Shown here piece after piece: positions 223 through 18,248 of a DNA stretch of 64,000 bases. The stretch is from a phage. The notes under the pieces are model-generated. The model was not told the DNA's origin and searched no databases. It was given only the letters and a program-made list of their open reading frames with translations. Within the stretch, counting starts at the first letter, position 1. Every line of letters starts with the position of its first letter. The DNA is taken from the sequence record NC_111505.1, one strand, 5' to 3'. Made by a program: the position numbers and the translations under genes.

Positions 223-635
223 CAGAAAACTTCAACAAATTCTTCCACAGTTTTAATGTCGTGGGAAAAAGGTTTACGGCTATAACGGGCAATAGCACTA
301 TCAATCATCGCCCGGTACTCCAAATCTTCAGAATATTTCATGAAGCATTGTAGCGTCTCTGGACAGATAGCTAAATAGCTCCACCACCCCTCTTCAGATT
401 GGTAGTCGAATCCCATACTCTCCAACCATGAAGCATATACACCTGCACCTTCCAGCCAGTGAGTATTTTCATCAAGAAACTTGTTAACAGTCATGTGAGC
501 TTCTAAGCATTTATCCAGCTCTTTTCCGTTAACCAGCCACGCACTGACAGTGGCGCATCCAAAGTCCACAGATTGAGTTGATAGATTGTATTGGTCATAG
601 TTCTCAGGTTTAACAATGATATCTTCTAATGTCAT
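219..635 (-). CDS. hypothetical protein
   Basis: 138-aa ORF from track; no recognisable motif. Confidence 0.5.
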   Translation of the reverse strand: MTLEDIIVKPENYDQYNLSTQSVDFGCATVSAWLVNGKELDKCLEAHMTVNKFLDENTHWLEGAGVYASWLESMGFDYQSEEGWWSYLAICPETLQCFMKYSEDLEYRAMIDSAIARYSRKPFSHDIKTVEEFVEVFC

Positions 636-652
636 TTTTCAGGCCTCTTTAT

Positions 653-682
653 ACAAAAATGCCCCACCCTTTCGGGTAGGGC
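653..682 (-). terminator. rho-independent terminator
   Basis: minus-strand hairpin GCCCTACCC-GAAA-GGGTGGGGC followed by ATTTTTG, just downstream of the SSB-like gene. Confidence 0.55.
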
Positions 683-697
683 TATGTTAACTAGATG

Positions 698-1924
698 TTA
701 AAAAGGTATGTCATCACAGAACTCGTACTGTGCCGGATTCTGATCCATCGGGTCATCTCCGTCATCATCTACAGGAGGGGCGTCTACAGTGTTTTGCTGT
801 GGAGTGACTTCCTGTTTGGCAGCTTGAGGTTCTTGATGCTCAGTAGTCCCAGCACCATTCTTGATCCAATCATACAACGGTTCAGCAAGATTAGTCAAGA
901 CATCTTTTGCCTCTGCAGTAATTGCTGCTGCAAAATCATCAACTTTCGTTTTCTTGTCAATACGGCGACAAGCGTTCAATACCGCATTACCAACACTGGC
1001 ACCTACTTCATCTTCAGTTCGATTGGTGGCTTGAGCGTACTCTTTCTTAAGCTCGATGGTGACCACGTGCAATGTTTTAGCCACATCTAAAGGGCTGTCA
1101 ACCTTGAATCCGCGATCTAGGATGATCTGCAACGCATTAATGCTGTGCCCCGTCTCTACACCAATAGGGTCGTAAGAGGATTTACGCTTTCCACCAGAAC
1201 CTTGAGTACCGTTCTCTGCTTTAGGCGGGTAGGCCTTGAAGCCGCTGATAATATTCCCGGTGTCTTTGTCAACAATAGCTGCAACACGACCGCCAACCAC
1301 CAGGTCTTTAAGCTGCTCATCAGAGACAACCATAGCACCTTCGCCAATCTTGTGGTCATTGACAGTAACCACGTTACCAACAATCTGAGTCACATCCCCA
1401 TAGATGCGTAAAACGTCCTGATTGGCATTCTGCTGGGGTTTCTGCTTCTGGCCTTGTGATTGTGTGCCTTGTTGCTGTTTTTGTTGCTGTGGAGCTGCTG
1501 GAGCCTCTCCTGCCCCCAGCTTAACCATTTTAGCCAATGAGCCTTTGTAGTAGGTCTTACCGTTATGCTCATTTGCCTTTAAAGGAATATTTACGATCCA
1601 TCCTGGCGTTACTGTTTCCCACTTGTCATCAATTTTAACAGAGACGGAATCTTGATGACCAGGTTTGAGCAATTTATCACCCATGCTGATCCAAACTTCT
1701 TCACCACCTTGAAGTAGGTTATCAGAAGAATCCAGTTCAGAAATCAGTAAGGAGATGGTGTGACTGGACTCGATTTTCTTACCTTGCCACACAGTGGTTT
1801 TAATACCTGTTGTAGGATCAGCACCTTTGATAGGTTTGATGCTGACACGTTTAATCATACCGTGAGCCAGTAAAACAGTTTCACGCGGATTCATCGGGTT
1901 GGCAAATTGTTGAATAACGCTCAT
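698..1924 (-). CDS. putative ssDNA-binding protein with E. coli SSB-like acidic C-terminal tip
   Basis: protein ends ...DDDGDDPMDQNPAQYEFCDDIPF (SSB tip is DDDIPF); Q-rich linker; start set at internal ATG 1924 because it overlaps the upstream stop (TAATG) and has AAGGAG upstream; N-terminal OB fold not verified. Confidence 0.5.
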   Translation of the reverse strand: MSVIQQFANPMNPRETVLLAHGMIKRVSIKPIKGADPTTGIKTTVWQGKKIESSHTISLLISELDSSDNLLQGGEEVWISMGDKLLKPGHQDSVSVKIDDKWETVTPGWIVNIPLKANEHNGKTYYKGSLAKMVKLGAGEAPAAPQQQKQQQGTQSQGQKQKPQQNANQDVLRIYGDVTQIVGNVVTVNDHKIGEGAMVVSDEQLKDLVVGGRVAAIVDKDTGNIISGFKAYPPKAENGTQGSGGKRKSSYDPIGVETGHSINALQIILDRGFKVDSPLDVAKTLHVVTIELKKEYAQATNRTEDEVGASVGNAVLNACRRIDKKTKVDDFAAAITAEAKDVLTNLAEPLYDWIKNGAGTTEHQEPQAAKQEVTPQQNTVDAPPVDDDGDDPMDQNPAQYEFCDDIPF

Positions 1925-2289
1925 TATTTGTCTCCTTGTTCTTCGTTGGTGTTTGCTGTGTGTGCAAACCCTGCTTGAATTAATTTGTCTTGCACTTGAG
2001 CCAACAGGCCCATTGCAAAACTTGTCGTCCCAGAAAGGGCCATTAGCATATCTCGTTGCTGAGCTACCCAACCTAAGGCATAATCCAAACGACGATATTT
2101 TTCTTCTTCGCGCAGAGCCTGAAATAATTGTTCAGCCTCTGGTTGTTGTGTGAGCTCCTGAAGTCTCCCCATGAAAGAAGAAAGCACTAGCAGAAGAGAC
2201 ACTTGATCTTTACTTAACCCTAAGAAAAATTCTTGAGGTTGTTCTTGCTCGTTCATCGCAACCGACGTTTGATCGTTCATTTGTTCCAT
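1924..2289 (-). CDS. hypothetical protein (Q/E-rich)
   Basis: 121-aa ORF; stop overlaps the next start. Confidence 0.45.
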   Translation of the reverse strand: MEQMNDQTSVAMNEQEQPQEFFLGLSKDQVSLLLVLSSFMGRLQELTQQPEAEQLFQALREEEKYRRLDYALGWVAQQRDMLMALSGTTSFAMGLLAQVQDKLIQAGFAHTANTNEEQGDK

Positions 2290-2372
2290 TATGGAATCTC
2301 CGATTTTATTTGAACAACATAGAAGGAGACACTATTTTAGCATCTCCTTCTGCAAATTACAATAGGTATTTG

Positions 2373-2618
2373 TTAGCCAATCACTTCAAAAGTTCCCCAA
2401 TTCCCGTCCAGCAGGCAGGTGATCGGATCACCATCATCGTCAATTATTTCAAAGTTTTCAACATCCAGAGTATGGTCATCGAACACAATACTTTTGTCAC
2501 CACCGCCAGAAACAACAGTGTATTCCTTACCTTGAGTCAAGTTTTGACACCCTTTGCCACCAAAACCCACTTCAACACAACGTACTTTCTGTCCTGCGCG
2601 AGCAACTACTTCAGTCAT
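2373..2618 (-). CDS. small hypothetical protein (acidic DDDGD motif)
   Basis: 81-aa ORF; IIDDDGDPITC motif resembles the small paralog family at 3.3-5.1 kb. Confidence 0.45.
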   Translation of the reverse strand: MTEVVARAGQKVRCVEVGFGGKGCQNLTQGKEYTVVSGGGDKSIVFDDHTLDVENFEIIDDDGDPITCLLDGNWGTFEVIG

Positions 2619-2635
2619 CTTAAGGTCTCCTGATA

Positions 2636-2956
2636 TTAATCGTCAAGTTCAAAATAGATTTTAACAGCTTCGTCGAAGATTGGAATCCCGATGTTGTTGA
2701 TAAGCTGCCAAACTACCATATCTTTTCCTGGATCTGGGAGAATGTCAACCTTTCTCCATGCGCTGTAGATCCAGTTTGGACCACCTTCTGCGCTAACTGG
2801 AAGATTTTCACCAGCTTCCTGCAGATACTTATACAGCAAAAGATATTCTGGGTACTCTAGAACACTATCCTCTGTGGTATACAGTAGTTCACGGTATACT
2901 TTCAGGAACCCTTCTGGTGTAATGTTTTCAGTCTTCATTTGCTGCTTCTCCTGCAT
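2636..2956 (-). CDS. hypothetical protein
   Basis: 106-aa ORF; start may be the internal Met near 2938. Confidence 0.4.
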   Translation of the reverse strand: MQEKQQMKTENITPEGFLKVYRELLYTTEDSVLEYPEYLLLYKYLQEAGENLPVSAEGGPNWIYSAWRKVDILPDPGKDMVVWQLINNIGIPIFDEAVKIYFELDD

Positions 2957-3332
2957 TCATCAGATCTGCCATAGCGTCACCCACGAATAGGACAACCACG
3001 TCGTTGACAGCGTCAGCATCATCTTTATTAATGTTGCTGAATTTGGGGCACACTGCAATGACCATATATACCCCGTTGCCCAACTGAACAGTGCGTGTAG
3101 TGCACATCAGTGTGGTGTTTGTGCCTTCTTTAAAGGCAAATCCTTGCAGACGTTCTTCCAGAGAGTCGCCTGTTGATTTCAACAAGGCAAGATCGCCCAA
3201 TGCGTAGGTAGTGTCCTCATAGGTCAGTCCAGAGGTCAGTGTTGCCTTTCCATCAGAAACTATAATAACCCCATCGGCACCGTCAAGCTCGGAGGCTTCA
3301 AAGATATTGATATCCCAAATGTTTTTCATCAC
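2928..3332 (-). CDS. hypothetical protein
   Basis: 134-aa ORF. Confidence 0.45.
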   Translation of the reverse strand: MMKNIWDINIFEASELDGADGVIIVSDGKATLTSGLTYEDTTYALGDLALLKSTGDSLEERLQGFAFKEGTNTTLMCTTRTVQLGNGVYMVIAVCPKFSNINKDDADAVNDVVVLFVGDAMADLMNAGEAANED

Positions 3333-3661
3333 TCTGCCTCATCATCTAAGTAATCATCAAGAGAGGTGAAGATTTCACCGAAGTATTCTAAGATTTCTAG
3401 CTCGCGTGTGGTGCAGCAAACATAATCTCCCTGGTCGTCCTTGATAGTAGCCTCTTTACCCAGCACATCCACTTCAAATTCGTCGTTCAACAGGACGGCC
3501 CCTGTGTAAACTTTGTCAGCTGTGCAGTCCCGAAAAGCAGAGTCCTTTTCCAGATAGTCTGGCTTAACCTTGGCTTTAATTCGTTGATATTGTTTGGTCA
3601 TTGCTGTGGTCCCCTTTCGTTTTGATAGGGCCATTATATTAGGCCCCATCACTGTTGTCAA
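3329..3661 (-). CDS. small paralog family protein
   Basis: 110 aa; shares FRDCT...KDDQGDYVCCT motif with 3665..3919. Confidence 0.5.
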   Translation of the reverse strand: MTTVMGPNIMALSKRKGTTAMTKQYQRIKAKVKPDYLEKDSAFRDCTADKVYTGAVLLNDEFEVDVLGKEATIKDDQGDYVCCTTRELEILEYFGEIFTSLDDYLDDEAE

Positions 3662-3664
3662 GTA

Positions 3665-3919
3665 TTAATGTTCAGGTTTTACAAAAACTACTTCATTAAC
3701 AGTGCACCAGACAGAGTCTCCTTCATCATCTTTAAAGGTAAGGCACTGGGCTGAGTTTTCCAGCTCATCAATCTCTTCTTGTGATAAAGGGGCCCCTTCT
3801 TCCAGAAGGGCTTTTACCAGAGGGTTCTCACAAAACTCTGCTTCATAAATTGCACCGACTGTGCAATCCCTCAAAGCCCGGTCATTTGCAACACATTCTG
3901 GCTTCAAAGTAATTTTCAT
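3665..3919 (-). CDS. small paralog family protein
   Basis: 84 aa; LRDCT...KDDEGDSVWCT. Confidence 0.5.
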   Translation of the reverse strand: MKITLKPECVANDRALRDCTVGAIYEAEFCENPLVKALLEEGAPLSQEEIDELENSAQCLTFKDDEGDSVWCTVNEVVFVKPEH

Positions 3920-3995
3920 CTTGGCAGTCTCCTTAGTTATTTAAAAATCAACGCTCTGTTTGTGTGAAGCATCTTATACCTAATCTTACTTCTTG

Positions 3996-4394
3996 TCAAT
4001 GACTATTTTCAATCATCCACACAGGGTCTAGGTAAATTTGTTGGCGTTTTGCCCAATGACAAACTTCATTGTACATCTGAATCTCTTTGTCCGTCAGTTC
4101 ACGAATAGGCTCATCTATACCCTCATTTTTGTGGTAATCCCATTCGGCATCGATTTCCCACAACCATGACTTACGATCTTCACGTTTACGCACACAGAAG
4201 TCCCCAGGACGGCCTGCCAGTGCATTTAAGAACTCGTTCTCCGCTCGCTCCTGGAGAATACTAAGGAGCAAAACGTTGGAGCATGACCGCAAAATATGCT
4301 TCAGCTCACAATCATCGATCTCAACTTCAATACGTTGCTTGACTGTGTGGGTACCTTTTACTAACATTCTGCCTCCTCTAGACAAACTCTGCAA
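3996..4394 (-). CDS. hypothetical protein
   Basis: 132-aa ORF; true start possibly internal. Confidence 0.4.
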   Translation of the reverse strand: MQSLSRGGRMLVKGTHTVKQRIEVEIDDCELKHILRSCSNVLLLSILQERAENEFLNALAGRPGDFCVRKREDRKSWLWEIDAEWDYHKNEGIDEPIRELTDKEIQMYNEVCHWAKRQQIYLDPVWMIENSH

Positions 4395-4572
4395 GGGTTG
4401 TGTTGTTCACTGCACCGCAGTAGATGGAATACCCCAACCCATTATGGTGCAGAAACCACGGCACACCTTGGTCATCCTTCACGTATACATCTCCATTTTC
4501 CGTAAAGGGCCAATACTCCTCTCCGAGGGTAAAATACCTACTCATACCTTCAGCCAGATACTTTACTTTCAT
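4378..4572 (-). CDS. small paralog family protein
   Basis: 64 aa; KDDQGVPWFLHHNGLGYSIY motif. Confidence 0.45.
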   Translation of the reverse strand: MKVKYLAEGMSRYFTLGEEYWPFTENGDVYVKDDQGVPWFLHHNGLGYSIYCGAVNNTTLAEFV

Positions 4573-4796
4573 AGATCCTCTTCAACAGCTACAAACTTGG
4601 CAAGTAGGGTGGTTCCATAGATATGATACTCACCATTTGCCAGATGGGAGATAAACCAGGCAACACCTTCCTCGTCTTCGATCATATTGTTCCTGCGATC
4701 CTTATCGTAGTAAACCTTGTAGACCTTACCTTCTTCAAAGAATGACAGGTCTGTCATCTTTTCTTCTACAAACGTCGCTTTAACCAAAGTTGTCAT
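4569..4796 (-). CDS. small paralog family protein
   Basis: 75 aa; EDEEGVAWFISHLANGEYHIY motif. Confidence 0.5.
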   Translation of the reverse strand: MTTLVKATFVEEKMTDLSFFEEGKVYKVYYDKDRRNNMIEDEEGVAWFISHLANGEYHIYGTTLLAKFVAVEEDL

Positions 4797-5077
4797 TGAT
4801 CTGCCTCCTTCTTGTTGAGCCGGAACACTGCAATAATAGCATTTCCAAGATGCAGTGTCAAATCATTTCCCAGATACCATAACATTCCACGGTCATCTTT
4901 AATGAAAGGGTAACAATCCGGTGCCTTCCAGACATTATACACTTTGCCGACCTGAAAGAAATCAGGCCCTGTTGGAATTTTAGTACCTGGCCACACTTGA
5001 GACACCTGAACGCACTCTACCTGCATAATAACAGGAATAGTCATGGAGGTAAATGTTTTTGTCGGTTCTACTACCAT
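4793..5077 (-). CDS. small paralog family protein
   Basis: KDDRGMLWYLGNDLTLHLGN motif; start moved to the internal ATG (track start 5167) because GAGGAG lies 6 nt upstream and the longer ORF would overlap polymerase exon 2. Confidence 0.45.
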   Translation of the reverse strand: MVVEPTKTFTSMTIPVIMQVECVQVSQVWPGTKIPTGPDFFQVGKVYNVWKAPDCYPFIKDDRGMLWYLGNDLTLHLGNAIIAVFRLNKKEADQ

Positions 5078-5126
5078 AAAAGTCTCCTCTCTATCTAACA
5101 ACACTTCCGTGTGTTGATAGTTTACA

Positions 5127-5480
5127 TTAGTGACAATCGCCCCAGTTACGACCACACAAGTATTCACCTGTGATCTGGAACGGAACGCCCATCATTTTAG
5201 AAGCTTGCCAGAAGCAATGCACCACCATTTCACCCACAGGGCTCCAGATAAGTTCAAGCTTTCCGTCATCGTTCAGAATAGGATCGTACACCGTGTTTCC
5301 GTCTCTGTCAACCACTTCGTTTCCGTTCTCATCCTTGCGTGCCTTTTTGTACTTATGACCGTCAAACACATGAAGTTTGGCCTCCTGTTCTGCCTTAAAT
5401 GCTTCCAGTTCTTCAATTGTGTCGAAGGTGTACACAGTCTTATACTTAGGCGTGTCAGGGACTTGAAGTTGGTACTCATC
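5127..5480 (-). CDS. DNA polymerase, family A (T7-like), exon 2: motif C DE and C-terminal tail
   Basis: begins DEYQLQV, completing HDE with exon 1; ends ...GRNWGDCH, which I recall resembling the T7 gene 5 C-terminus (...GPNWAICH); the track ORF 5127..5483 is this exon with an artefactual TTG start. Confidence 0.6.
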   Translation of the reverse strand, partial: DEYQLQVPDTPKYKTVYTFDTIEELEAFKAEQEAKLHVFDGHKYKKARKDENGNEVVDRDGNTVYDPILNDDGKLELIWSPVGEMVVHCFWQASKMMGVPFQITGEYLCGRNWGDCH

Positions 5481-5756
5481 CAATAGTTCAGGTAGGTCGT
5501 TAAGCTACCCCGCACCATTACGTGCATAGCCATACGTTTTCACGTAGGATCGGACCATCTCATATTCCTATGATAAGCAACCACAGGAATCCTCCCATTT
5601 CGACCGCACTTGCTGGTCTACTTCCTTTCGGAATGGCCTCTGAGCGTTCGCTCTTTTGAGCGCTTCGTTGCGGATTACCTTGCCATAAGGTTTAGGCTTC
5701 CCGCAGTTAAAGAGGTTATTCGACATAGATTACTCTATGAAGCCACAATGTTATTT
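5481..5756 (-). ncRNA. candidate group I self-splicing intron (276 nt, no ORF) in the DNA polymerase gene
   Basis: exon 1 ends in U (CAU His); in-frame UAA three codons into the intron; guide-like UGUGG can pair with CCAU|A giving a G.U at the splice site; UGCGGGAA (P-like) can pair with AAUCCGCA (Q-like); hairpins with GUAA and GAAA loops; last intron nt is G; splicing rebuilds YYH|DEYQLQV. Confidence 0.6.
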
Positions 5757-8700
5757 ATGGTAATAAATAATACGACGAACACCTTCATCGTACCACCCAC
5801 GCTTCACCATTTGGTGGTGCATGAGTATCCCAACTAAGTCACACAACGATGCACCACCATTTTGTTGGTATGCATTAAGTAAAGAGTGTTTAGATCGAGT
5901 CCAGATGGCATGACCATCAAAAGAGTAGATAAACTTCTTACCTGTTGCTTCCCAGAATTTCTCCAGATCCTCTTTGCGCCCCTTAAGACCAGGGTTGGCA
6001 TCCCAAAGCGCATCGATTACCTTTTGCCCTAACTCTGGGGAGATATCCAGCATGTCTGCAACTTTATCTTTTTGTGCCCCGTACATAACACCGTACGTGA
6101 CAGGCTTACCATCGTTACGGGAAATCTCCTTGCCTGCTACAGAAGAGTAAGCTTTGGCGTTATTACAGTTACCGCACACTGCCACTTTACCATTCCTTCT
6201 CACAATGATTGCTCCAGAAGGGACGGTAACGCAATAAACCAAAGAACCACTCACCTCGACAGACTCTTTAGATAGTGTCAGCAACCCTGCTCTCTGTTTG
6301 CTACCAATCGTGATTCTGTGCTGTACGGAACGACCTTTTTTGTGAATCGCCACCGTATTATTCCGTAAACCACACTGAGTAGCCAGCGCAGACACAACCT
6401 CTACAGATTTCTTCCTGCACTCGGCCTGAGAGTAGTAGGCAACTTTTCCACCTTCGGAAGATACCCACCCGTCCCAGTTAGATAAAGAAGCTATAAACAG
6501 GTTTTTAGATTCTTTATCAAGGTCCATCAGGTTGTAGGTGAAATCCTTATTGCTGTCCAAAAACTCAAATACCCAGGACGGAACGTGGAATTGGAACCTT
6601 CTCGCCAGTAAGCCCCCTTTTGTGGTTTTCCCGCCCTGCTCTACATAACTAAGGCTTAGAGCAGAAAAAGTATCTAAAAGCGTTGCAACTTTTCTGCCCT
6701 TCCCGACCTGAATCCTGCACACGATGCTGCCGTCCTTATTTGTATGCAAGTGTCCATCATCGTGAATAGCAATAAGCAAATTAATCTGGGCAGGAGATAA
6801 GGTTGTATTCCCATAAAACTCTGCCGCATGGATAAACCTTCTTCCTGAATTAGACCCTTTACCTGCTTTCAGGTCTTTTGCCAAATCTTCAAACAATTTA
6901 TTGCTTCTGTGATCCACGGTCAGCATCCTGTGTTGATCTGTAACCATAAAATCCACACCGCTGTTGTGGAAATGATACATATCCCCACAATAACCACGCT
7001 TAACGTAATTTAATGGTGTAACAAGGTTCATCGACGAGGTGTTGTGATCGTACTGGAACACTTGTGTTCCCGGATCAAGATCTTCAAACCTCACCCACCC
7101 TTTCTCCGTGAGAATTTGTGTATCTCCTGAATAACAGTGTGCATCGCCGTTACTTACAACATCATAATACAAGCCGTTGTCGAACTCAAAGGCACCCCAA
7201 GCCCCGATAAGCTGCTCTAAGTTGGACCCGTCAATACCGATCTCAAAGTATCCTGGAGGAACGCCCCACAGACTACGCATCTCTTTACCCATAACCACTT
7301 TAGGAGATGGTTTAGGCATGTTTGCACAAATACTGTGTTTCTGTCTGGAAGTGTTTGTCAATCCAGAACTTTTAGCAGGAAGCTTGTGGTCAATCTTCAG
7401 ACGTGGATGATTAAGAAGACCAGTATCAACCTTATCCTCCTTGATTGGATCAAGTACCGATCTACGGTTTCGCAAGGATAACCACAAGACGATATCTTTA
7501 GCCATCTCTCCGTTCAACTTTTCAAGATTCGGACATAGGTGTCCAAACGTATCTTTCAGTTGCGGAGAAGTAATAAGCGCTCTGGCTTTTCTACGTATCT
7601 TCCCAAACACTTCCTTTTTAATCCTTTCTGAGTTAGGGAAGCTTCGGAACTTGTGCACGGTTGTCTGAAACTTAGCATCAGTTTTGTTCCAGAAGTTGAT
7701 AATTAGGTCACAATACTCTGACTCTAAAAGCTCGTCCATATATGCATATACTCGTGCATCAACATCAGCATCAGGCAGAGCTTTCTTCTTGCTGTCCTTG
7801 GTTACATCTTTAGTTCTCCACATTGTTGGGAGCCAACCAGCGCTGATCAAATATCGCTTAATATCGTCCTGGTTGCTGATCTTCATAGGTATCTTGCAGT
7901 CAGGCATCCGCTTCTGCTGCAGATCACTTATTGCCTGATCCATTAGTTCTTTAGGTAAAGGATGTGGTGTCGAGGTACCTTTAATATACCCCCTTAAGAA
8001 ATCAGCCATCTTATCGGGGTCTTTGCAGCCCATCTCTTCACACCATTTTATCCCCATTTTGCTGACATCTCCTGTGGAGGTAAAGGCTCGCTTAGGTGGG
8101 GCTTTGAATTCTAAAGCACTCATGTCCACAGGATAGCCAAGCTTGTCTTTTAACCATTTCCAACCGTTATTAGAGATTGTCCCATCTTGGTTAAACGGCT
8201 TTTCAGGGAACTTAGGCCGCTGAGACATTGATAGCTCTTTTAGAGGAAGTTGTGGTTCAACACGATCAGCGATCTCTTTCATCCACGCATCGCAGCGGTC
8301 ACGTAAAGCAATAGCCCCATCTATGTCGAAATACACACCCTGTCGAGCCTGCAGCTCCATCAGGAAATGCTGCAGCATGCCTCGGCGTAATGCATTCTTC
8401 CAGGTGATCTTCTTGAAGCCTTTCGGCTTCTCTTTGGCAGGATCGTACATAAAGTTCTGCATGTCAGATTTGCCGTAGAATACACCTTTTGATTCTGCTA
8501 CCAACTCCTTCCAGAGCAACTCCTGGATGATAACGTCCTCGAACACACGATCCACATACTTCCACAGCGGAAGCTCACGCCAGTCATCGATTTGAACTTT
8601 CTGGTTACCAAGGGCATAGCCCCATGCCATAAGGCCATGAGGCCCAACAGGTTGCATTTTCTTGGTAACTGGATTGAATACTGCGTCCGGACAACCTTTT

Positions 8701-9149
8701 GGCAAAGGGCGGTCAGGCCACAAGATTCGACTCATCGCCAACGTATCAAATAGATTAACTTGGTGGTCGTTGATAGTCCCCATGCATTTAGGATCACGGA
8801 ACATATCAAAATGAACACCGGATAATCTTTCCATCAGCATAAAGTCATAGCTGTAGCAGTTATGACAGTTCAAAGCCGTAGGTGACCAGTCTGAATTGCC
8901 TGTAAGCCAGCCTTCCAACTCTGAAAAATCTGCTATGCGAGCCTCAAAATCTTTATAAAGAGTTTTCTTTGCCAGAATAAAGTTCTTAGCCTTTTCTACA
9001 TCCTCTTCAGAGTAGTGTGTGCGGTCATTTAGAGGAAGGAACAGCATAAAACGGTTCTTATTCAGCTCTTTAAACAAACCGCAGTGATAATAAAGATCTG
9101 GATCTTCCAAAAGCCCGGAGGCCTCCAAGTCGAACGACCACATGCTCAT
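5757..9149 (-). CDS. DNA polymerase, family A (T7-like), exon 1 with embedded intein
   Basis: N-terminal exonuclease motif SFDLEASGL...HCG (T7 gp5-like); motif A IDGSNLEQLIGA; motif B RNDGKPVTYGVMYG; AAGGAG 8 nt upstream of ATG 9149; ORF stops 2 codons after the His of motif C. Confidence 0.85.
6168..7136 (-). mobile_element. intein (323 aa) with LAGLIDADG-type homing endonuclease domain, inside DNA polymerase
   Basis: inserted after GDAH between motifs A and B; block A CYSGDTQIL; block B TDQH; LAGLIDADG-like LLIAIHDDGH and FIASLSNWDGW; ends ...VAVCGN followed by Cys+1 (penultimate Gly, not His); flanking extein aligns with T7 NGDIHT. Confidence 0.75.
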
Positions 9150-9207
9150 ATACAGTTCTCCTTAAAGGGGAGGCGGTTGTACTACCCCTCCCACTCTTGG
9201 TTAAACA

Positions 9208-11286
9208 TTAAAAAGGTGTTTCATCATCCTCAAAACCAGGGACCTGGTCAGAGGATGGATCATCGTACTGGAGGTCTTCCTGCGTGTCAACAGGCTTAAC
9301 AGTAGGAGTTACAACCTTATCAGCCACAACCTTGCCCATAGGTGTTTCTACAACTGCATGCTCCTGATCCTCAAACATAGCCTGAGGTCTCCAAACAACC
9401 TCCCCACCTTCTCCGTCTGTAAACATTTGCATTTCTTTGTCCCAGTACCAATTACTGGCATCATGGAACTTACCTGTGTGCGGGTCCATAACCAAAGTGT
9501 CAGCAATACCTAGAGTTTTTGCTGGACGGTTTTTAAGACCTACCAGACGGACACGTCCACGAGAACGATCCACCATTTCTTCGGCCTCGACACCTATGAC
9601 TACCCAACTCAACTGTTCAAGCCCCGCCGATCCTCGCAAATTCTCTTTTCGCACAGGATACCAGAAAGGTAACGGGTTACCATCCTTGTCCTTAGGAGGC
9701 ACAATCTCTGTACGTTTGAGGTGAGCGATCACCAAGATAAACACGTTAAACTGCTTACAAAACGCAGCCAGCTGAGTCATAGCCATGTCCAGTTCTTTTC
9801 GCTCATCCTTAACATTAAGCCCTGAAATTACCATGGACAGGTGATCCAGCACAATATAACGGCAATGGTACAGGCAAACCATTTGCTTAAGCTTGGTAAT
9901 CAACTCATCCACCGGAATAGACCCGAAATGTTTGAACACTTTGATTTTTCCAGCTTTTGCCCATGATTGGTGAATCTCTGCGTGTTCTTGATCAGTTAAA
10001 AACTGGCTAGGATCTTCAACAAACTCTTTAACATCAAACCCTAACTGGTTTGCATACAAGGAGTTAATTGCTTCCTCTGGGTCCTCCTCAAGATGGATCA
10101 TACATAGACGATCATCCTCTTCATAGTCATCAGCCTTCGGGCATGTCGGGTCCATTAGGTATCTTGCAATACAGTGTTCCAGTTTTTTAGCTACGGTTGT
10201 TTTACCACCACCTGATGGACCTGTAAGCATTACTAGTGTCCCTTTGTGCAAGCCTTTTAGCATTTTTTGCAGTTTTGGGAACTCTGCGCTGATATCTACC
10301 CCGTTGGAAGTCTTTTTCCGCAAAGACTCGATAGAGAAGTCTTCTAAATCCGACACCGCATCAGGCACATATTTAACAGGATGCCGGAACATGTTGACAA
10401 TATCTTCCAGCTTTTTAGCCTTCAGCATGTCTCGGATATCTTTTACACCGTCAGGGTCATTTACTTCACCAGGGTATTCTACGTGGTAAACGTTATCAGC
10501 CATCAAAAATGCTGCGATATTGTGCGTGGCCTCAACACCTTTAATGACGTGTTTTTGCTTCTCTACCTCGTTAGCTGCATCGTTATCCATTGCCAGCACA
10601 ACTGTTCCATAGCTACGGATAAACTTCTCATTGTTTGCAAAAGTATCTACTGCGTTTGCACATCCACAGTTAATTCCAACAAAAGGTAGGCAGGGTTTTC
10701 CTGCCAGATCACCACCGTTTATAACTGCGTCGATCCCGTCCTGGACCTCTTTAGCCCACTGCTTCACCTTTGCCGGGGCTTTAGCGTTGGTGAGAATCCC
10801 TTTTACCTGTATCTGATATGCAGCCTGCCATGCTGCAATAACATCGCCTTCCCCCTCACAAACGTTAATTTGCTTACGGTTGTTGGAAGATGCACACAGC
10901 TTTTGCCCAAACATCTGGGAGTTGGCCTTTACTATGCCAACAACGGAGAAATGGCCCCTTTGCTCTTTAGGAATCGTCCAGTCACGCTTTTTGAAACCGG
11001 ACAGATTTCCGTAGCGGTCGTAATATGGGAAATATGTTGCAGTGACTGTCACACCGTCTTCTTGGGATAATGCTGATCGCACACCAAAATATTGTGCAGC
11101 CATCAGACCGATATTTTGTTGTGGGACAGGGACAATTTTAGTATTTTCTAAAACAGTCTCTACAGTTTCAACTTCTTTTTCATCACGATAGTCTCGTTTC
11201 ACACTTCCCCCACTTTTATACTTAGTTGCTTTCGGGTTTGGCTCACCGAAACGGTTGTATGCAGATGCCATGAATTTACTTCCCAT
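9208..11286 (-). CDS. DNA primase-helicase (TOPRIM primase + DnaB/gp4-like helicase)
   Basis: TOPRIM VCEGEGD and LAMDNDAAN; Walker A GPSGGGKTT; Walker B-like IVLDHLSM; 692 aa. Confidence 0.7.
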   Translation of the reverse strand: MGSKFMASAYNRFGEPNPKATKYKSGGSVKRDYRDEKEVETVETVLENTKIVPVPQQNIGLMAAQYFGVRSALSQEDGVTVTATYFPYYDRYGNLSGFKKRDWTIPKEQRGHFSVVGIVKANSQMFGQKLCASSNNRKQINVCEGEGDVIAAWQAAYQIQVKGILTNAKAPAKVKQWAKEVQDGIDAVINGGDLAGKPCLPFVGINCGCANAVDTFANNEKFIRSYGTVVLAMDNDAANEVEKQKHVIKGVEATHNIAAFLMADNVYHVEYPGEVNDPDGVKDIRDMLKAKKLEDIVNMFRHPVKYVPDAVSDLEDFSIESLRKKTSNGVDISAEFPKLQKMLKGLHKGTLVMLTGPSGGGKTTVAKKLEHCIARYLMDPTCPKADDYEEDDRLCMIHLEEDPEEAINSLYANQLGFDVKEFVEDPSQFLTDQEHAEIHQSWAKAGKIKVFKHFGSIPVDELITKLKQMVCLYHCRYIVLDHLSMVISGLNVKDERKELDMAMTQLAAFCKQFNVFILVIAHLKRTEIVPPKDKDGNPLPFWYPVRKENLRGSAGLEQLSWVVIGVEAEEMVDRSRGRVRLVGLKNRPAKTLGIADTLVMDPHTGKFHDASNWYWDKEMQMFTDGEGGEVVWRPQAMFEDQEHAVVETPMGKVVADKVVTPTVKPVDTQEDLQYDDPSSDQVPGFEDDETPF

Positions 11287-13344: not shown

Positions 13345-13683
13345 CTACTGAAGGTCTTCAGAGTCAAGCTCAAAAAGAATCAAACTGTGCATGTTTGCAG
13401 AGAGCTCAACACACTCCGCAACGACAAGGGTCTGATAGTAAGGTTCAGCACCCTCGATGTCTTCGTTAAAATCCACAACAAGGTAGTCACCTTTGTTAAA
13501 GGTGTATTTGTCAGATGTAAACGCAAACCCTGCCCAGTCCCCTACAGGGTCTTTATCGATCACCTTTGTTAGCAGGAGGTCTTTTTCACGAGATCTTTTA
13601 GTAAAATCGTGAATCACAACAGCCTTCTCTTCAGGATTTGGATTTCCACACACGTAGTTAACTATATTTCTCCACAAACTCAT
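13345..13683 (-). CDS. hypothetical protein
   Basis: 112-aa ORF overlapping the helicase stop by 4 nt. Confidence 0.45.
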   Translation of the reverse strand: MSLWRNIVNYVCGNPNPEEKAVVIHDFTKRSREKDLLLTKVIDKDPVGDWAGFAFTSDKYTFNKGDYLVVDFNEDIEGAEPYYQTLVVAECVELSANMHSLILFELDSEDLQ

Positions 13684-15050
13684 ACGTCCCCCTTTTCTGC
13701 TCTAGTTTCAAAATCTTTCCTGACTTTCTCGTCTAAGCCAGGGAAAGTTGTATTATAAAACTCTACGACTCGCGGGTCAACAATAATATCCACCTCTCTT
13801 AATGGACGCAACAAGTTTATTCCCTGTATCGTCTTAACCCGACTCAAGGCAACATACGTCATTCCTGGAGAGAAAGCTCCGTTCTTTCCAAGGTCCAGGT
13901 TGTAACAATCTAGCGTAAGTCCTTGACTTTTATGCGATGTTACTGCGTACCCCGATTTCAAAGGGAGTTGCTCATAAGACCCGATCACAACCCTCTCTAT
14001 GAACTTCTCCATCTTCCTTTCGGCAATATTGTACCTCTGGGAAGGTTTGTACTCGTTATTCTCCCACAATCTCGGCTCAATTTCAACCTGTGTCCCGTCT
14101 TCTAGCTCAACTACCACGGATTTAGTCTTGAATTTTACCACTGTGGCACGTGTCCCGTTGACATAATACGGAACTTTGTGAGTAGGGTCAACATCGTTTG
14201 AGGTTATCATAACCTTCATCCCTATCTTCAGCCTCATTTCCTGCTCCACAGGCAGTGTGGAAGGGAACTTACCCTTCATTTTACCAATGTAGGTCTTCTC
14301 TGGGGCCTGGATGGCATCATAGAAACGTCTGTTCACCTCCTCTGCTTGCTTATTGGTGGCGCAGATAGTCAAGGCATCTGTTGGGACACCGCCATGATAG
14401 CAACGAGTGTTAAGCTCTGCTACAACCTCTTTTATGCGACGACCTTCACGAACACAGTTCAACATTGTGGCGAAGCGAACAGATTCCTGACGGAACTGGT
14501 CTACTAAGGCTATATTGTGAAGATTAAGATCCTCCCAAGATTCTGTATAGCAACACAAATCTGTGTGGTAGAAGTTGAAGTAGGCTTCTTTCTCCATGGA
14601 AGAGACAACTGGAGGTGCTTGGTAGAAATCTCCAAACAATAACACCTGAATGCCTCCGAAAGGTTTGTCATTTTTCCGAAGAAAGCGGAGTTTTCTGTCC
14701 ATCTCTATGAACTTGTCAGCACGGATCATAGAGATTTCATCGATAATTAGGATGGTAAATGCCTTGCTTTTCAGAGGCTTTGCTGTTTTTGCCCTTATTG
14801 CTGTCCAGTCTGACTCCATGCTCACACCTGCGGCAAGATCGAAAGTTCGGTGTGCTGTTGCTCCATTAACGTTTAAAGCGGCTACCCCTGTCGGGGCAAC
14901 CGTTATGCAAGAGTCTCCATACATGGACTGGATCATGTTGATAAGATATGTCTTCCCGGTTCCACCAGGTCCACTTACGAAGACATTCTCACCACTCATG
15001 ATTGCAACAAGGGCAGCATCTGTGCCTACATCGTACTGCCCTTTCTCCAT
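13680..15050 (-). CDS. SF1 DNA helicase, Dda/RecD/Pif1-like
   Basis: Walker A VSGPGGTGKTY; ITVAPTGVAA; Walker B IIDEISMI; C-terminal TYVALSRVK motif. Confidence 0.75.
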   Translation of the reverse strand: MEKGQYDVGTDAALVAIMSGENVFVSGPGGTGKTYLINMIQSMYGDSCITVAPTGVAALNVNGATAHRTFDLAAGVSMESDWTAIRAKTAKPLKSKAFTILIIDEISMIRADKFIEMDRKLRFLRKNDKPFGGIQVLLFGDFYQAPPVVSSMEKEAYFNFYHTDLCCYTESWEDLNLHNIALVDQFRQESVRFATMLNCVREGRRIKEVVAELNTRCYHGGVPTDALTICATNKQAEEVNRRFYDAIQAPEKTYIGKMKGKFPSTLPVEQEMRLKIGMKVMITSNDVDPTHKVPYYVNGTRATVVKFKTKSVVVELEDGTQVEIEPRLWENNEYKPSQRYNIAERKMEKFIERVVIGSYEQLPLKSGYAVTSHKSQGLTLDCYNLDLGKNGAFSPGMTYVALSRVKTIQGINLLRPLREVDIIVDPRVVEFYNTTFPGLDEKVRKDFETRAEKGDV

Positions 15051-16265: not shown

Positions 16266-18248
16266 TTATTTGATGTTATTCTTTGTATCGATCAGTTCAC
16301 GGTATTCAATCATAGCAGGGGTGTCCCAATATTTCAAGCCTACATGCTTTAAAAGTGGATATTTCTTTTCCAATCTCGCAATATAGGCCTTCCCGCACTT
16401 AACTCGGTTGGCGATTAAGACTTTGGCACGATGATTCAGCTCACCGTACTTCCACGTGGTGCTACCTTCCCACTTGTGGAAATGTGGCCGATAATTTCCA
16501 AAATCCTGCATGGGTATAATTTTACCTAACTGTCTGTACAGGCTGTCATATGAAGTTTCATTTGCTGCGCGAGTCAGTAAGAATTTCCAAGCATCCTCTT
16601 TCAACAAATGTTCCACATTCTTCTCTGTAACATATTGGCAATCAGGATCAGTCCAAAGCAGACGAGATTCCGACACCAGGTACAGATCTTCCCCTTCAGG
16701 AATCTGGAGTGCCGCACGCACACGGTCATAATCTTGCTGGTAGATGTTACTCATCTGCCCTAGCCAACAACTTCCGCGTTGGATATCCCCCTCATACGGT
16801 ATGCAGTGCTTAATCTTCCTGAACTCTGCCTTAGTAATACGCTCACGCCGGAAGTAACCATCCTTCTCAAGTTTTTTAACCCAATAACCGGGCTCATAAC
16901 GAGTTTTTGTTTCACCTTTCTTCACAGGTCGGCGAGGAAGCTCTGATAACAATTTGACCGTATCTGCAAAGAACGGATGGTGTGCCACTTCTTTAAACTC
17001 TTTTACCAGATCCGTGTTCCGGCAATAGAAAACGTTGCGTCCGGTGATCTCGCTTAAGTAGTTACACTTATTTCGGTTATATTTACCGTCTCCGTCGTTA
17101 AATACTAGATAGACTCCTCGTAAGAATTCTACCTTTCCGTAACAAGCGTATCCTATGCGGCTTTTATTTAAGCCGCCTGCGAAGATCTCACAGTCCCCTA
17201 AATTCCCTAGTCCTGTTTCTTCCCACCGGTCATACATAAAATTCTTACCGAAGATGTGCCCGAACACTCCACTGTTCTTCATCATCTCGCGTGCTTCTGA
17301 GGATGTTTTTGCTGTCTCCAGTTCCGCAACAACTTCTGCTCCACGAAGACGGATACCTTCTTTGACAAAAGCTTCCAAACGCTCTTGGAATCCACCATCA
17401 TCGTGACCTTCTATGGTCCATTCACGTCCTGGGTTAATATTGCAGTCTCCGATAGGGATCTCTACACAAATTGCAGGATAATCTGTTAGTGTTTCCAGGA
17501 ACTTAGAACGGTAAGGTTGGTGACCCATTACCACACGACTCTCGTCAGAGCTGGTATAGCCCTTCAGGATGGTCATCTTCCAACCATCTTTTTCATAATA
17601 ATACTGCGCCTCTACTTTGTCTCCCTCCAGCATCTTGCTCGTCATCGGATCGGTGACAGTGAACGGAAATTTTGCATAGCGTAGACATGATGCAATAGCG
17701 GTGCGATATTTCAGAACATGCTCTTTCTTAACATGAAACTGAACTTTTACTCCATTGTGCTCTTCAGTCTTCCGCTCACGGATCTTGGTGACATTTGGGA
17801 TACCCTGGTCCAAGAACAATAGGTATGTGCTTTCCACACCATTGTGCACACTGATTACATCGAAAGTGTCCACCATGCTGAACGGGGCCTTTGAACCAAC
17901 ACCTTTATTGCCTACCAGATCGTTGCTGTTGCGCTTGGTTGACTCGCCGAGGTTCATGAAAGTGTTGCGGACCATCTCTTCTGACATACCGAGGCCAACG
18001 TCCTGCACAAAGAAGTATGGTTCAAGATCTGTAGGGGAGTGAATGATGATCGGAACATCACCACGTCCAGACTCAACATGAGAGTCCACAGCATTGAAGA
18101 TTGGTTCACGGCAGCTTGCCAGCACCTTATCTTCATAAATCCCTTTAATGATTAACCCAAAAGTTTCTTTGTTCAGAGAAATTGATCCCCTTGTTACCTC
18201 CAAATTCCCAGTTAGCACTGCTTTAGTTTCATTACTGTTTACAATCAT
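16266..18248 (-). CDS. GHKL-superfamily ATPase domain protein (MORC/Hsp90-like N-terminus) with uncharacterised C-terminal region
   Basis: N-box EPIFNAVDS; G1 box VQDVGLGM; G2 box GNKGVGSKAPF, in canonical order; about 450 aa of C-terminal sequence unassigned. Confidence 0.6.
   Translation of the reverse strand: MIVNSNETKAVLTGNLEVTRGSISLNKETFGLIIKGIYEDKVLASCREPIFNAVDSHVESGRGDVPIIIHSPTDLEPYFFVQDVGLGMSEEMVRNTFMNLGESTKRNSNDLVGNKGVGSKAPFSMVDTFDVISVHNGVESTYLLFLDQGIPNVTKIRERKTEEHNGVKVQFHVKKEHVLKYRTAIASCLRYAKFPFTVTDPMTSKMLEGDKVEAQYYYEKDGWKMTILKGYTSSDESRVVMGHQPYRSKFLETLTDYPAICVEIPIGDCNINPGREWTIEGHDDGGFQERLEAFVKEGIRLRGAEVVAELETAKTSSEAREMMKNSGVFGHIFGKNFMYDRWEETGLGNLGDCEIFAGGLNKSRIGYACYGKVEFLRGVYLVFNDGDGKYNRNKCNYLSEITGRNVFYCRNTDLVKEFKEVAHHPFFADTVKLLSELPRRPVKKGETKTRYEPGYWVKKLEKDGYFRRERITKAEFRKIKHCIPYEGDIQRGSCWLGQMSNIYQQDYDRVRAALQIPEGEDLYLVSESRLLWTDPDCQYVTEKNVEHLLKEDAWKFLLTRAANETSYDSLYRQLGKIIPMQDFGNYRPHFHKWEGSTTWKYGELNHRAKVLIANRVKCGKAYIARLEKKYPLLKHVGLKYWDTPAMIEYRELIDTKNNIK

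Follow-up and report, generated by a model that had tools for sequence, protein, structure and literature searches.

A single DNA polymerase gene within a 64,000-nucleotide (nt) stretch of phage DNA (NC_111505.1; the whole stretch is called the window) has very probably been invaded by two independent mobile elements that would each splice themselves out: a group I intron, which interrupts catalytic motif C, and an intein, which lies between motifs A and B. The reading of an intron plus an intein is supported by a covariance-model match, by covariation among homologous introns, by natural alleles that lack the elements, by a structure model with matches to known folds, and by signatures of homing. 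A megablast search with positions 5100..9200 matched 133 phage records, nearly all of them Vequintavirus, with Escherichia phage EPFV3-03/2025 as the best match at 97.4% identity; by this comparison, the window phage is a Vequintavirus, an rV5-like myophage of E. coli with a genome of ~137 kb.

The polymerase gene and its predicted product

The gene and its parts, in the order in which they are transcribed, are:

5127..9149, minus strand: complete family A (T7 gp5-like) DNA polymerase gene, intron and intein included; the predicted mature product of 925 amino acids (aa) has exactly the length of the uninterrupted slur16 polymerase.
7137..9149, minus strand: N-extein part of exon 1, residues 1-671, with the exonuclease domain and motif A, ending ...SNGDAH, as placed by alignments with FV3, slur16 and T7.
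6168..7136, minus strand: intein, 323 aa (969 nt, codons 672-994), missing from the polymerases of FV3, rV5, slur16, JES2013 and RudolfGeigy.
5757..6167, minus strand: C-extein part of exon 1, from the +1 Cys (CNNAKAY...) through motif B (RNDGKPVTYGVMYGAQ) to the His of motif C (..IIYYH).
5481..5756, minus strand: group I intron of subgroup IA2, 276 nt, without an open reading frame (ORF), identified by its RF00028 match, insertion boundaries, covariation and minimum free energy (MFE) fold.
5127..5480, minus strand: exon 2 (DEYQLQV...), with the Asp-Glu of motif C and a 115-aa tail; stop codon TAA at 5127..5129.

An earlier note, made from the letters of this DNA alone, had called the polymerase T7-like and had proposed an alignment with T7 gp5 as a check. 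In that alignment, T7 gp5 residues 468-658 match the C-terminal 342 residues of the spliced, intein-free protein (E = 1.6e-13) through both junctions, and the claim holds. In particular, once both insertions are removed, motif A (GIDGSNLE), the NGDxH element, motif B and motif C (YHDE) are in register with T7 gp5, and the window polymerase shows the family A order of motifs A (DxSxLE), B (RxxxKxxxYG) and C (HDE). The Pfam DNA_pol_A model matches the polymerase with E = 7e-7, under its cut-off.

Boundaries and RNA structure of the intron

The minus-strand ORF 5751..9149 terminates in ...RRIIYYH-K-stop (CAT AAA TAA), and the protein sequence picks up as DEYQLQV... at 5480, 276 nt downstream. When the DNA is aligned with the uninterrupted genes of slur16 and JES2013, it contains one clean 276-nt insertion (5756..5481) whose boundaries cannot be slid and whose last base is G5481. 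The flanks of the insertion read ...TATTACCAT | GATGAGTAC..., and the uninterrupted alleles read IIYYHDEYQLQV across the same site. Precise removal restores the frame, and the predicted junction IIYYH|DEYQLQV is the sequence of uninterrupted slur16, JES2013 and NHEP1; moreover, tblastn with a 208-aa query spanning the spliced junction returned one uninterrupted match, at 99-99.5% identity, in JES2013, slur16, naswa and A12a. On these alignments, motif C of the polymerase is split between His and Asp-Glu by a group I intron, and the earlier placement of that intron at 5481..5756, with the junction YYH|DEYQLQV, is correct to the base.

The covariance-model search that had been proposed as a further check gave a clear match: Rfam RF00028 (group I) aligns with 5531..5766 on the minus strand over the full model (1-253), with 64.7 bits against a gathering score of 50 bits and E = 4e-14. 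No other Rfam family, and hence no second intron, was matched in a scan of the 64 kb. The helix that defines the 5′ splice site is:

5743..5760, minus strand: P1, formed by exon CCAU (5760..5757) and intron AA (5756..5755) with the internal guide UUGUGG (5748..5743).

Within P1, the wobble pair at the splice site is U5757.G5746, and the helix is paired at 100% in the seven variants compared below; as a candidate P10, GAUG of exon 2 (5480..5477) can pair with CAUU of the guide (5750..5747). The features from which an intron had been suspected, namely an exon-final U with a G.U guide pairing, an immediate in-frame stop and a terminal G, are all present (U5757.G5746, CAT AAA TAA and G5481); further, the pair once described as P/Q-like, UGCGGG/UCCGCA, is P4, and the GNRA loops that had been seen cap P7.1 and P9. 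Between P7 and the 3′ strand of P3 there are two extra hairpins, UUCC-GAAA-GGAA (P7.1) and GACC...GGUC (P7.2), linked by GUA. Subgroup IA2 is recognised by such a GUA-linked pair of helices in this position (PMC3428280), and the intron is therefore assigned to it. The Rfam match ends at P9, and the remaining 50 nt form two more hairpins, P9.1 and P9.2; the MFE fold of the single sequence reproduces P1-P9.2, with z = -2.64.

Sister introns occupy the same codon boundary in the polymerase genes of other phages:

JEP1 and SYGMH1 (Vequintavirus): 328 nt, no ORF.
24-2-1 (Avunavirus): 317 nt, no ORF.
FV3 and Mangalyan (Vequintavirus): 842/843 nt, with a 168-aa HNH ORF in the P6 loop.
SSE121 and K54_rec1 (Seunavirus-like): 771 nt, with a 163-aa HNH ORF in the P6 loop.

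With ORFs removed, seven variants from three genera and ~4-5 lineages, a small sample, were examined for covariation. Across 75 pairs in 11 helices, standard pairs fill 97.3% of cells, versus 37-40% when the partners are slid by 1-3 columns, and 23 of the 75 pairs have changed on both sides, a number reached in 0 of 500 shuffles. Compensatory pairs occur in P2 (5), P8 (5), P9 (4), P3 (2) and P9.2 (2), and the P7 pseudoknot changes from C-G to U-A; P7.2 is also supported. The covariation signal is consistent and agrees with the independent Rfam model, small as the sample is. RNAalifold proposed a helix between the 3′ strand of P7 and the 3′ splice-site region (columns 290-296 with 362-368), which was rejected as an artefact of pseudoknot-free folding; P7 was put in its place because it shows a compensatory change. 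Likewise rejected was the derivation of the 276-nt intron by simple deletion from the 842-nt FV3-type intron, as P5, P6, P7.1 and P8 differ substantially. P7.1 and P9 of the window intron resemble those of the SSE121 intron instead of the FV3 type, and it is the 328-nt JEP1/SYGMH1 form that resembles the FV3 intron minus its ORF.

Known relatives of the intron and the case for RNA splicing

An identical (100%) 276-nt intron is present in rV5, RudolfGeigy, LL12 and others, rV5 and RudolfGeigy being viable laboratory phages. The polymerase intron of rV5 and RudolfGeigy (Bas52) is thus like that of the window in sequence and site, although both phages lack the intein. In the RudolfGeigy record (MZ501102, BASEL collection), the polymerase coding sequence (CDS) is a two-piece join, and the BASEL authors report comparative mapping of intron boundaries; the rV5 genome paper describes terminase introns only and takes the polymerase as a 775-aa protein.

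The closest experimental support comes from Pectobacterium phage CB7, of the same subfamily, where a polymerase intron with the HNH gene CB7_50 was shown to splice by reverse transcription PCR and Sanger sequencing (PMC7344957). Its insertion site is identical, RRIIYYH|DEYQ (CB7 reads DEYQLEV), and its 3′ half is homologous, being ~73% identical across roughly half the window intron; CB7 differs in the HNH ORF within the intron, in its genus, in a second intron in motif B and in a polymerase without an intein. That second intron (KY514263, HNH CB7_52; 919..1633 of the compared locus) splits motif B between ...GKGVTYG and (V)MYGAQ, where the window is uninterrupted. By analogy, splicing in vivo of the CB7 homologue at the same site makes splicing of the window intron probable (PMC7344957).

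PMC3428280, citing Bonocora and Shub 2004, places the introns of two T7-like phages, PhiI and W31 (AY769989, AY769990), which are of subgroup IA2, at site 881 of E. coli Pol I, with an HNH ORF in P6a. On that description, they share with the window intron a family A polymerase as host gene, the His881|Asp882 junction of motif C and the subgroup, and the P6a position of their ORF is also that of the ORF in the sister introns of FV3, Mangalyan and SSE121; they differ in having podophage hosts and an intron ORF, where the window has an ORF-less copy in a 137-kb myophage. The comparison is one of site and subgroup. Overall, the window intron is of a known kind at a known, classic site, and has already been annotated or experimentally supported in close relatives.

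If the 276-nt element instead stayed in the RNA, exon 1 (ending YYHK-stop) and exon 2 (from a TTG start, 5483) would be translated apart and would associate as a split enzyme. Such a split enzyme has reportedly been found in phage Aeh1, whose NrdA is divided by mobE. An ORF with a TTG start does open 3 nt before exon 2, the polymerase is entered as two separate CDSs in several GenBank records, and in CB7 one HNH-containing intervening sequence stays in the RNA, a split enzyme having been suggested for that gene (PMC7344957). Here, however, the split would place the catalytic Asp-Glu (motif C) on another chain than the remainder of the palm, and the 30 nt before exon 2 contain no Shine-Dalgarno-like sequence and are paired in P9.2. 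Moreover, compensatory changes maintain the full group I core, which shows purifying selection for the RNA structure; splicing is known for the CB7 homologue in this position; and the BASEL curators annotate a join. Weighed together, these points make a split polymerase extremely improbable, and the element is read as a splicing intron.

Relatives of the window intron were also found in the terminase large subunit gene of phage Av-05, and in or beside the polymerase genes of the marine Vibrio phages 424E50-1 and K460 (67% identity over 94% of the intron). The distribution of the ribozyme suggests that it moves between genes and between phage groups.

The intein: boundaries, family and fold

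Alignment of the window polymerase with that of FV3 shows two nearly identical proteins apart from one block of 323 residues, flanked by ...VVSNGDAH and NNA[K/E]AY. This block starts with CYSGDTQILT (Cys1) and ends with VAVCGN (Cys321-Gly322-Asn323), followed by the +1 Cys; intein-less alleles read GDAH|QNNAEAY at the insertion, with Gln where the intein alleles have Cys, and the intein-less site in slur16 and rV5 is ...GGGGACGCACACCAAAACAATGCTGAGG.... The insertion point lies between motifs A and B, directly after the equivalent of T7 His506, which we take to be one of the triphosphate-contacting residues in the T7 replication-complex structure; active-site positions such as the His that binds deoxynucleoside triphosphates (dNTPs) are typical sites for inteins. 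T7 and CB7 have Thr at the position equivalent to +1, which therefore tolerates a nucleophile.

The splicing motifs are block B, VTDQHRM (Thr66 and His69), and block F, LVYCVTVPSG (VYCVTVP, with Cys302), and two endonuclease motifs lie between them:

6750..6779, minus strand: first LAGLIDADG motif, LLIAIHDDGH, with catalytic Asp127 (Asp in 136 of 142 relatives).
6465..6500, minus strand: second LAGLIDADG motif, LFIASLSNWDGW (core SLSNWDG), with catalytic Asp222 (Asp in 138 of 142 relatives).

An exhaustive HMMER search with the intein found 7482 proteins at E <= 1e-3, nearly always aligned over all 323 residues and with the match embedded in larger proteins of many kinds, including family A polymerases and ribonucleotide reductase small subunits; a word-indexed protein search with the same query gave no matches, which, given the HMMER result, was a failure of sensitivity. 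All of 141 full-length segments have Cys1 and a +1 Cys, Ser or Thr, the -1 residue is highly variable, and the terminal pair is Gly-Asn in 118 and Gly-Gln in 11. Across the top 142 relatives, among them the Bethlehem RDF intein discussed below, Cys1, a Thr or Ser in block B and Cys302 occur in every sequence, the block B His is invariant, and the penultimate residue is Gly in 131. The window intein possesses every family-invariant residue (Cys1, His69, Asp127, Lys149, Trp221-Asp222, Cys302 and the terminal Asn). A related intein occupies the same D-x-H| site in other phage-type polymerases (P0002, P0007, P0010, P0018, P0020, P0021 and P0027).

AlphaFold2 on the single sequence gave an unusable model with a predicted local distance difference test (pLDDT) score of 35; with an alignment of 26 sequences as input, it gave a pLDDT of 93.5 and a predicted template modelling (TM) score of 0.90. 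The top Foldseek matches of the latter model are PI-SceI, TliVMA and PI-PfuI (E ~1e-13, query-normalised TM 0.62-0.72), its central domain matches I-DmoI, I-SceI and other LAGLIDADG enzymes, in keeping with the alpha-beta-beta-alpha-beta-beta-alpha pseudo-dimer fold of that endonuclease family, and it also matches the AceL NrdHF split intein (PDB 6ZGQ), with which the family profile aligns at E = 1.5e-13. The modelled fold shares with PI-SceI, PI-PfuI and TliVMA the two-domain arrangement of HINT and LAGLIDADG, while differing from them in sequence (12-14% identity), in their extra DNA-recognition regions, in their His-Asn ends and in host gene. Of the sequences in that 26-member alignment, 7 have a Pfam Intein_splicing match and 6 a LAGLIDADG_3 match. 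Since Asp127, Asp222 and Lys149 are conserved, the LAGLIDADG endonuclease is plausibly active. The earlier description of a 323-aa intein between motifs A and B, with Cys1, a TxxH block, two LAGLIDADG-like motifs and an Asn followed by Cys+1, is borne out by the allele alignments, the fold and the family.

No further member of the intein family turned up when the window was scanned with the profile in all six frames. Elsewhere, a metagenomic family A polymerase fused to UDG (P0003, 2020 aa) carries two inteins of the family (399-732 and 979-1300) and a third intein region with an HNH domain (~1437-1834), an extreme case of multiple invasion of one polymerase.

Splicing class and the weighing of the reading

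The class of the intein was judged against two known systems. The AceL NrdHF split intein is the closest solved sequence relative of the splicing domain and, like the window intein, has Met at B:12, Cys at F:4 and no penultimate His; unlike it, AceL NrdHF is an atypical class 3 intein with Ala1 and a Met-Cys-Thr triplet, is naturally split and has no endonuclease domain. The RDF (phosphoesterase) intein of mycobacteriophage Bethlehem aligns with the window intein over its full length, ending Thr-Gly-Asn|Ser, and shares Cys1, a VWC/VYC block F, Gly-Asn followed by a nucleophile, and a LAGLIDADG-type insert; it differs in its ~22% identity, its host gene and its phage lineage. Kelley et al. treat penultimate-Gly phage inteins, including Bethlehem RDF, as class 1; they report that the RDF intein splices completely, and that a Gly-to-His change slows splicing, Gly being preferred (PMC5050341). 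In the clade of the window intein, therefore, a penultimate Gly is normal and the His dispensable, and the earlier description of Gly322 as unusual was an overstatement.

Class 3 inteins are defined by the lack of a position-1 nucleophile and by Trp at B:12 (PMC4031507, PMC7664689). The window intein has neither trait: Cys1 is invariant, and B:12 is Met71, with Trp at that position in 0 of 142 relatives. At F:4, where class 3 inteins have their branch-point nucleophile, it has Cys302 (invariant in 142 of 142), which is a candidate for such a role. A class 3 assignment, prompted by the 6ZGQ match, was not adopted in view of the invariant Cys1 and the missing Trp at B:12; as both defining traits of class 3 are missing, the intein is filed as class 1, in line with the experiments on Bethlehem RDF. 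A departure from the plain class 1 route, with Cys302 as a branch-point nucleophile, either class 3-like or in a relay from Cys1 through Cys302 to Cys+1, is unlikely, though it has points in its favour. The F:4 Cys and Cys1 are both invariant, there is no block G His, and B:12 is Met, a residue shared with the atypical class 3 intein AceL NrdHF; on the other hand, the class 3 definition is contradicted on both counts, and the class 1 view of Kelley et al. covers the Bethlehem RDF intein, which itself has Cys1 and a block F Cys. There is accordingly a small chance that a large, mostly phage-borne clade with both Cys1 and an F:4 Cys might splice through a block F branched intermediate or a thioester relay. 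If true, the clade would link, in both mechanism and evolution, class 1 with class 3, two intein classes for which separate origins have been argued (PMC7664689).

The insert might also be a decayed intein that no longer splices, retained as a domain of the polymerase or inactivating the gene. It has no penultimate His, and Pfam matches to it stay below threshold. Yet every family-invariant residue is intact, a Gly-Asn end is normal for the family, and with this ending the Bethlehem RDF intein splices completely. Further, one would expect the fingers to be disrupted by a 36-kDa insert beside the dNTP-binding His, but six phages that were isolated and propagate have it in the only polymerase they encode, and the +1 Cys is restricted to intein-bearing alleles. 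Because the invariant residues are intact and six propagating phages rely on the gene, a dead, retained intein is very improbable. Protein splicing is the preferred reading, to which the viability of the six carrier phages and the experiments on the Bethlehem RDF intein point by analogy.

Several considerations weigh against the reading of two active self-splicing elements. We infer RNA splicing, protein splicing and endonuclease activity in the window phage. The covariation set consists of just seven sequences from ~4-5 lineages. The window intron has no homing endonuclease gene, and its current mobility must therefore rely on recombination or on endonucleases acting in trans. In Pfam searches with the window intein alone, Hint_2 is sub-threshold and LAGLIDADG is unmatched, so that membership was set through the relatives, the profile and the fold. 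Finally, Gly322 replaces the canonical penultimate His and block F has Cys instead of Asp at position 4, and since the closest relative with a solved structure belongs to class 3, the assignment to a precise chemical route is tentative.

Allele states and homing signatures

Phages whose polymerase genes are ~93-97% identical to that of the window fall into four allele states:

Neither element: slur16 and JES2013 (2778-nt gene, 925 aa).
Intron only: rV5, RudolfGeigy and FV3.
Intein only: NHEP1 (single 1248-aa CDS).
Both elements: the window, EPFV3, JEP1, Mangalyan and 241Ecol014PP (inspected), and VB-EcoM-WM (by coverage only).

The four states suggest that intron and intein are mobile and independent of each other. 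Close copies of the intein occur in only six phage records, all Vequintavirus polymerases, with the next relatives at most 31% identical and in other genes; an intron is present at the polymerase site in roughly 65-70 of ~116 Vequintavirus-type records, an estimate from identity bands and not a count.

Across 11 aligned alleles and ~2.7 kb, the sites that separate intein-bearing from intein-less alleles are 7146, 7143 and 20 positions in 6167..6101, and nowhere else; all 22 fall in flanks that reach no more than 10 nt upstream of the insertion and 67 nt downstream. The only fixed differences between intron-bearing and intron-less alleles are four synonymous sites in exon 2. The two tracts are:

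6101..6167, minus strand: tract just downstream of the intein with 20 of the 22 intein-linked fixed differences, read as a co-conversion or target-immunity tract.
5469..5478, minus strand: four synonymous third-position sites (5478, 5475, 5472 and 5469), linked to the intron.

One of the intron-linked sites, GAU versus GAC, improves P10, and the +1 Cys occurs only in intein-bearing alleles. The fixed differences at the flanks form the pattern expected of homing with co-conversion of short flanks, or of selection for target-site immunity, and would fit either.

In some relatives, free-standing HNH endonuclease genes flank the polymerase, downstream of it in 241Ecol014PP (5595..6242 of its locus) and between helicase and polymerase in JES2013 (619..1353 of its locus); the window has neither. 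These genes are another layer of mobile-element polymorphism at the polymerase locus. More than a dozen records labelled 'Campylobacter phage' (MG0656xx, host C. jejuni) are ~94-95% identical to the window polymerase locus, some with a 100% identical intron, and their host label looks doubtful.

Proposed mechanism

In the proposed mechanism, the transcript would fold into a group I core, and guanosine would attack after U5757, held in P1 by the U.G wobble. The freed exon 1 would then attack on the 3′ side of the terminal G5481, while a 4-bp P10 holds exon 2 in line, to yield an mRNA encoding ...IIYYH-DEYQLQV.... Translation of the spliced mRNA would give a 1248-aa precursor, from which the 323-aa intein after the dNTP-binding His would excise itself using Cys1, the Thr and His of block B, Asn323 and the +1 Cys, leaving a 925-aa polymerase with Cys in place of Gln. 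The LAGLIDADG domain of the intein and the HNH genes in P6 of the sister introns would act as homing endonucleases that invade empty alleles during co-infection, dragging short flanking tracts along.

Precedents, annotation and use

The earlier note had considered two self-splicing elements in one essential gene to be notable. Both elements are borne out, but their notability was overstated: in CB7, NrdA and NrdB are each interrupted by a group I intron and an intein (Table 3, PMC7344957). Like the window polymerase, these are essential nucleotide-metabolism genes with both element types in a phage of the same subfamily; the gene is different. In the literature searched, an intron plus an intein in a Vequintavirus DNA polymerase is not described. 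The structural details of the note were correct throughout, its estimate of significance was too high, and the novelty is modest; the intein adds a new, so far unannotated member to a phage intein type already known, and the case is fairly ordinary for phages and does not overturn current understanding. What interest remains comes from the clean polymorphism of four allele states with its co-conversion tracts, and from the pair of invariant cysteines that marks the intein clade.

The findings bear on annotation. In several of the examined GenBank records, the polymerase is mis-annotated, being split into two genes, called a hypothetical protein, or given spurious small ORFs within the intron. 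For example, RefSeq rV5 (NC_011041; 3982..4606 of the compared locus) has two 'DNA polymerase' CDSs and small hypothetical ORFs within the intron, and in EPFV3 (1552..5574 of the compared locus) both polymerase pieces are annotated as 'hypothetical protein'; an intein annotation is absent from all six GenBank records that carry the intein. The true product is predicted to be one 925-aa enzyme. Moreover, the four allele states, together with sister introns that have or lack an HNH gene, make up a compact natural system in culturable E. coli phages, which could serve to measure homing, co-conversion and endonuclease-gene loss. The intein is small, sits at the active-site His of a well-understood polymerase and, by analogy, belongs to the fast-splicing phage type with a penultimate Gly, and it may thus interest intein engineers.

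Neighbouring genes

The upstream neighbour of the polymerase gene encodes a T7 gp4-like primase-helicase (9208..11286), and the polymerase lies directly downstream of it on the minus strand. The replication module further contains, both on the minus strand, genes for a PIF1-like helicase (13680..15050) and for a protein of 660 aa whose ATPase domain is of the GHKL type (HATPase_c_3; 16266..18248). Immediately downstream of the polymerase gene, positions 3329..5167 of the minus strand hold a run of small ORFs of 64-124 aa, which relatives list without an assigned function. They form two groups of weak tandem paralogs (3329..3661 with 3665..3919; 4378..4572 with 4569..4796 and 4793..5167), with a common K/IDD-x-G-x-x-W/V motif.

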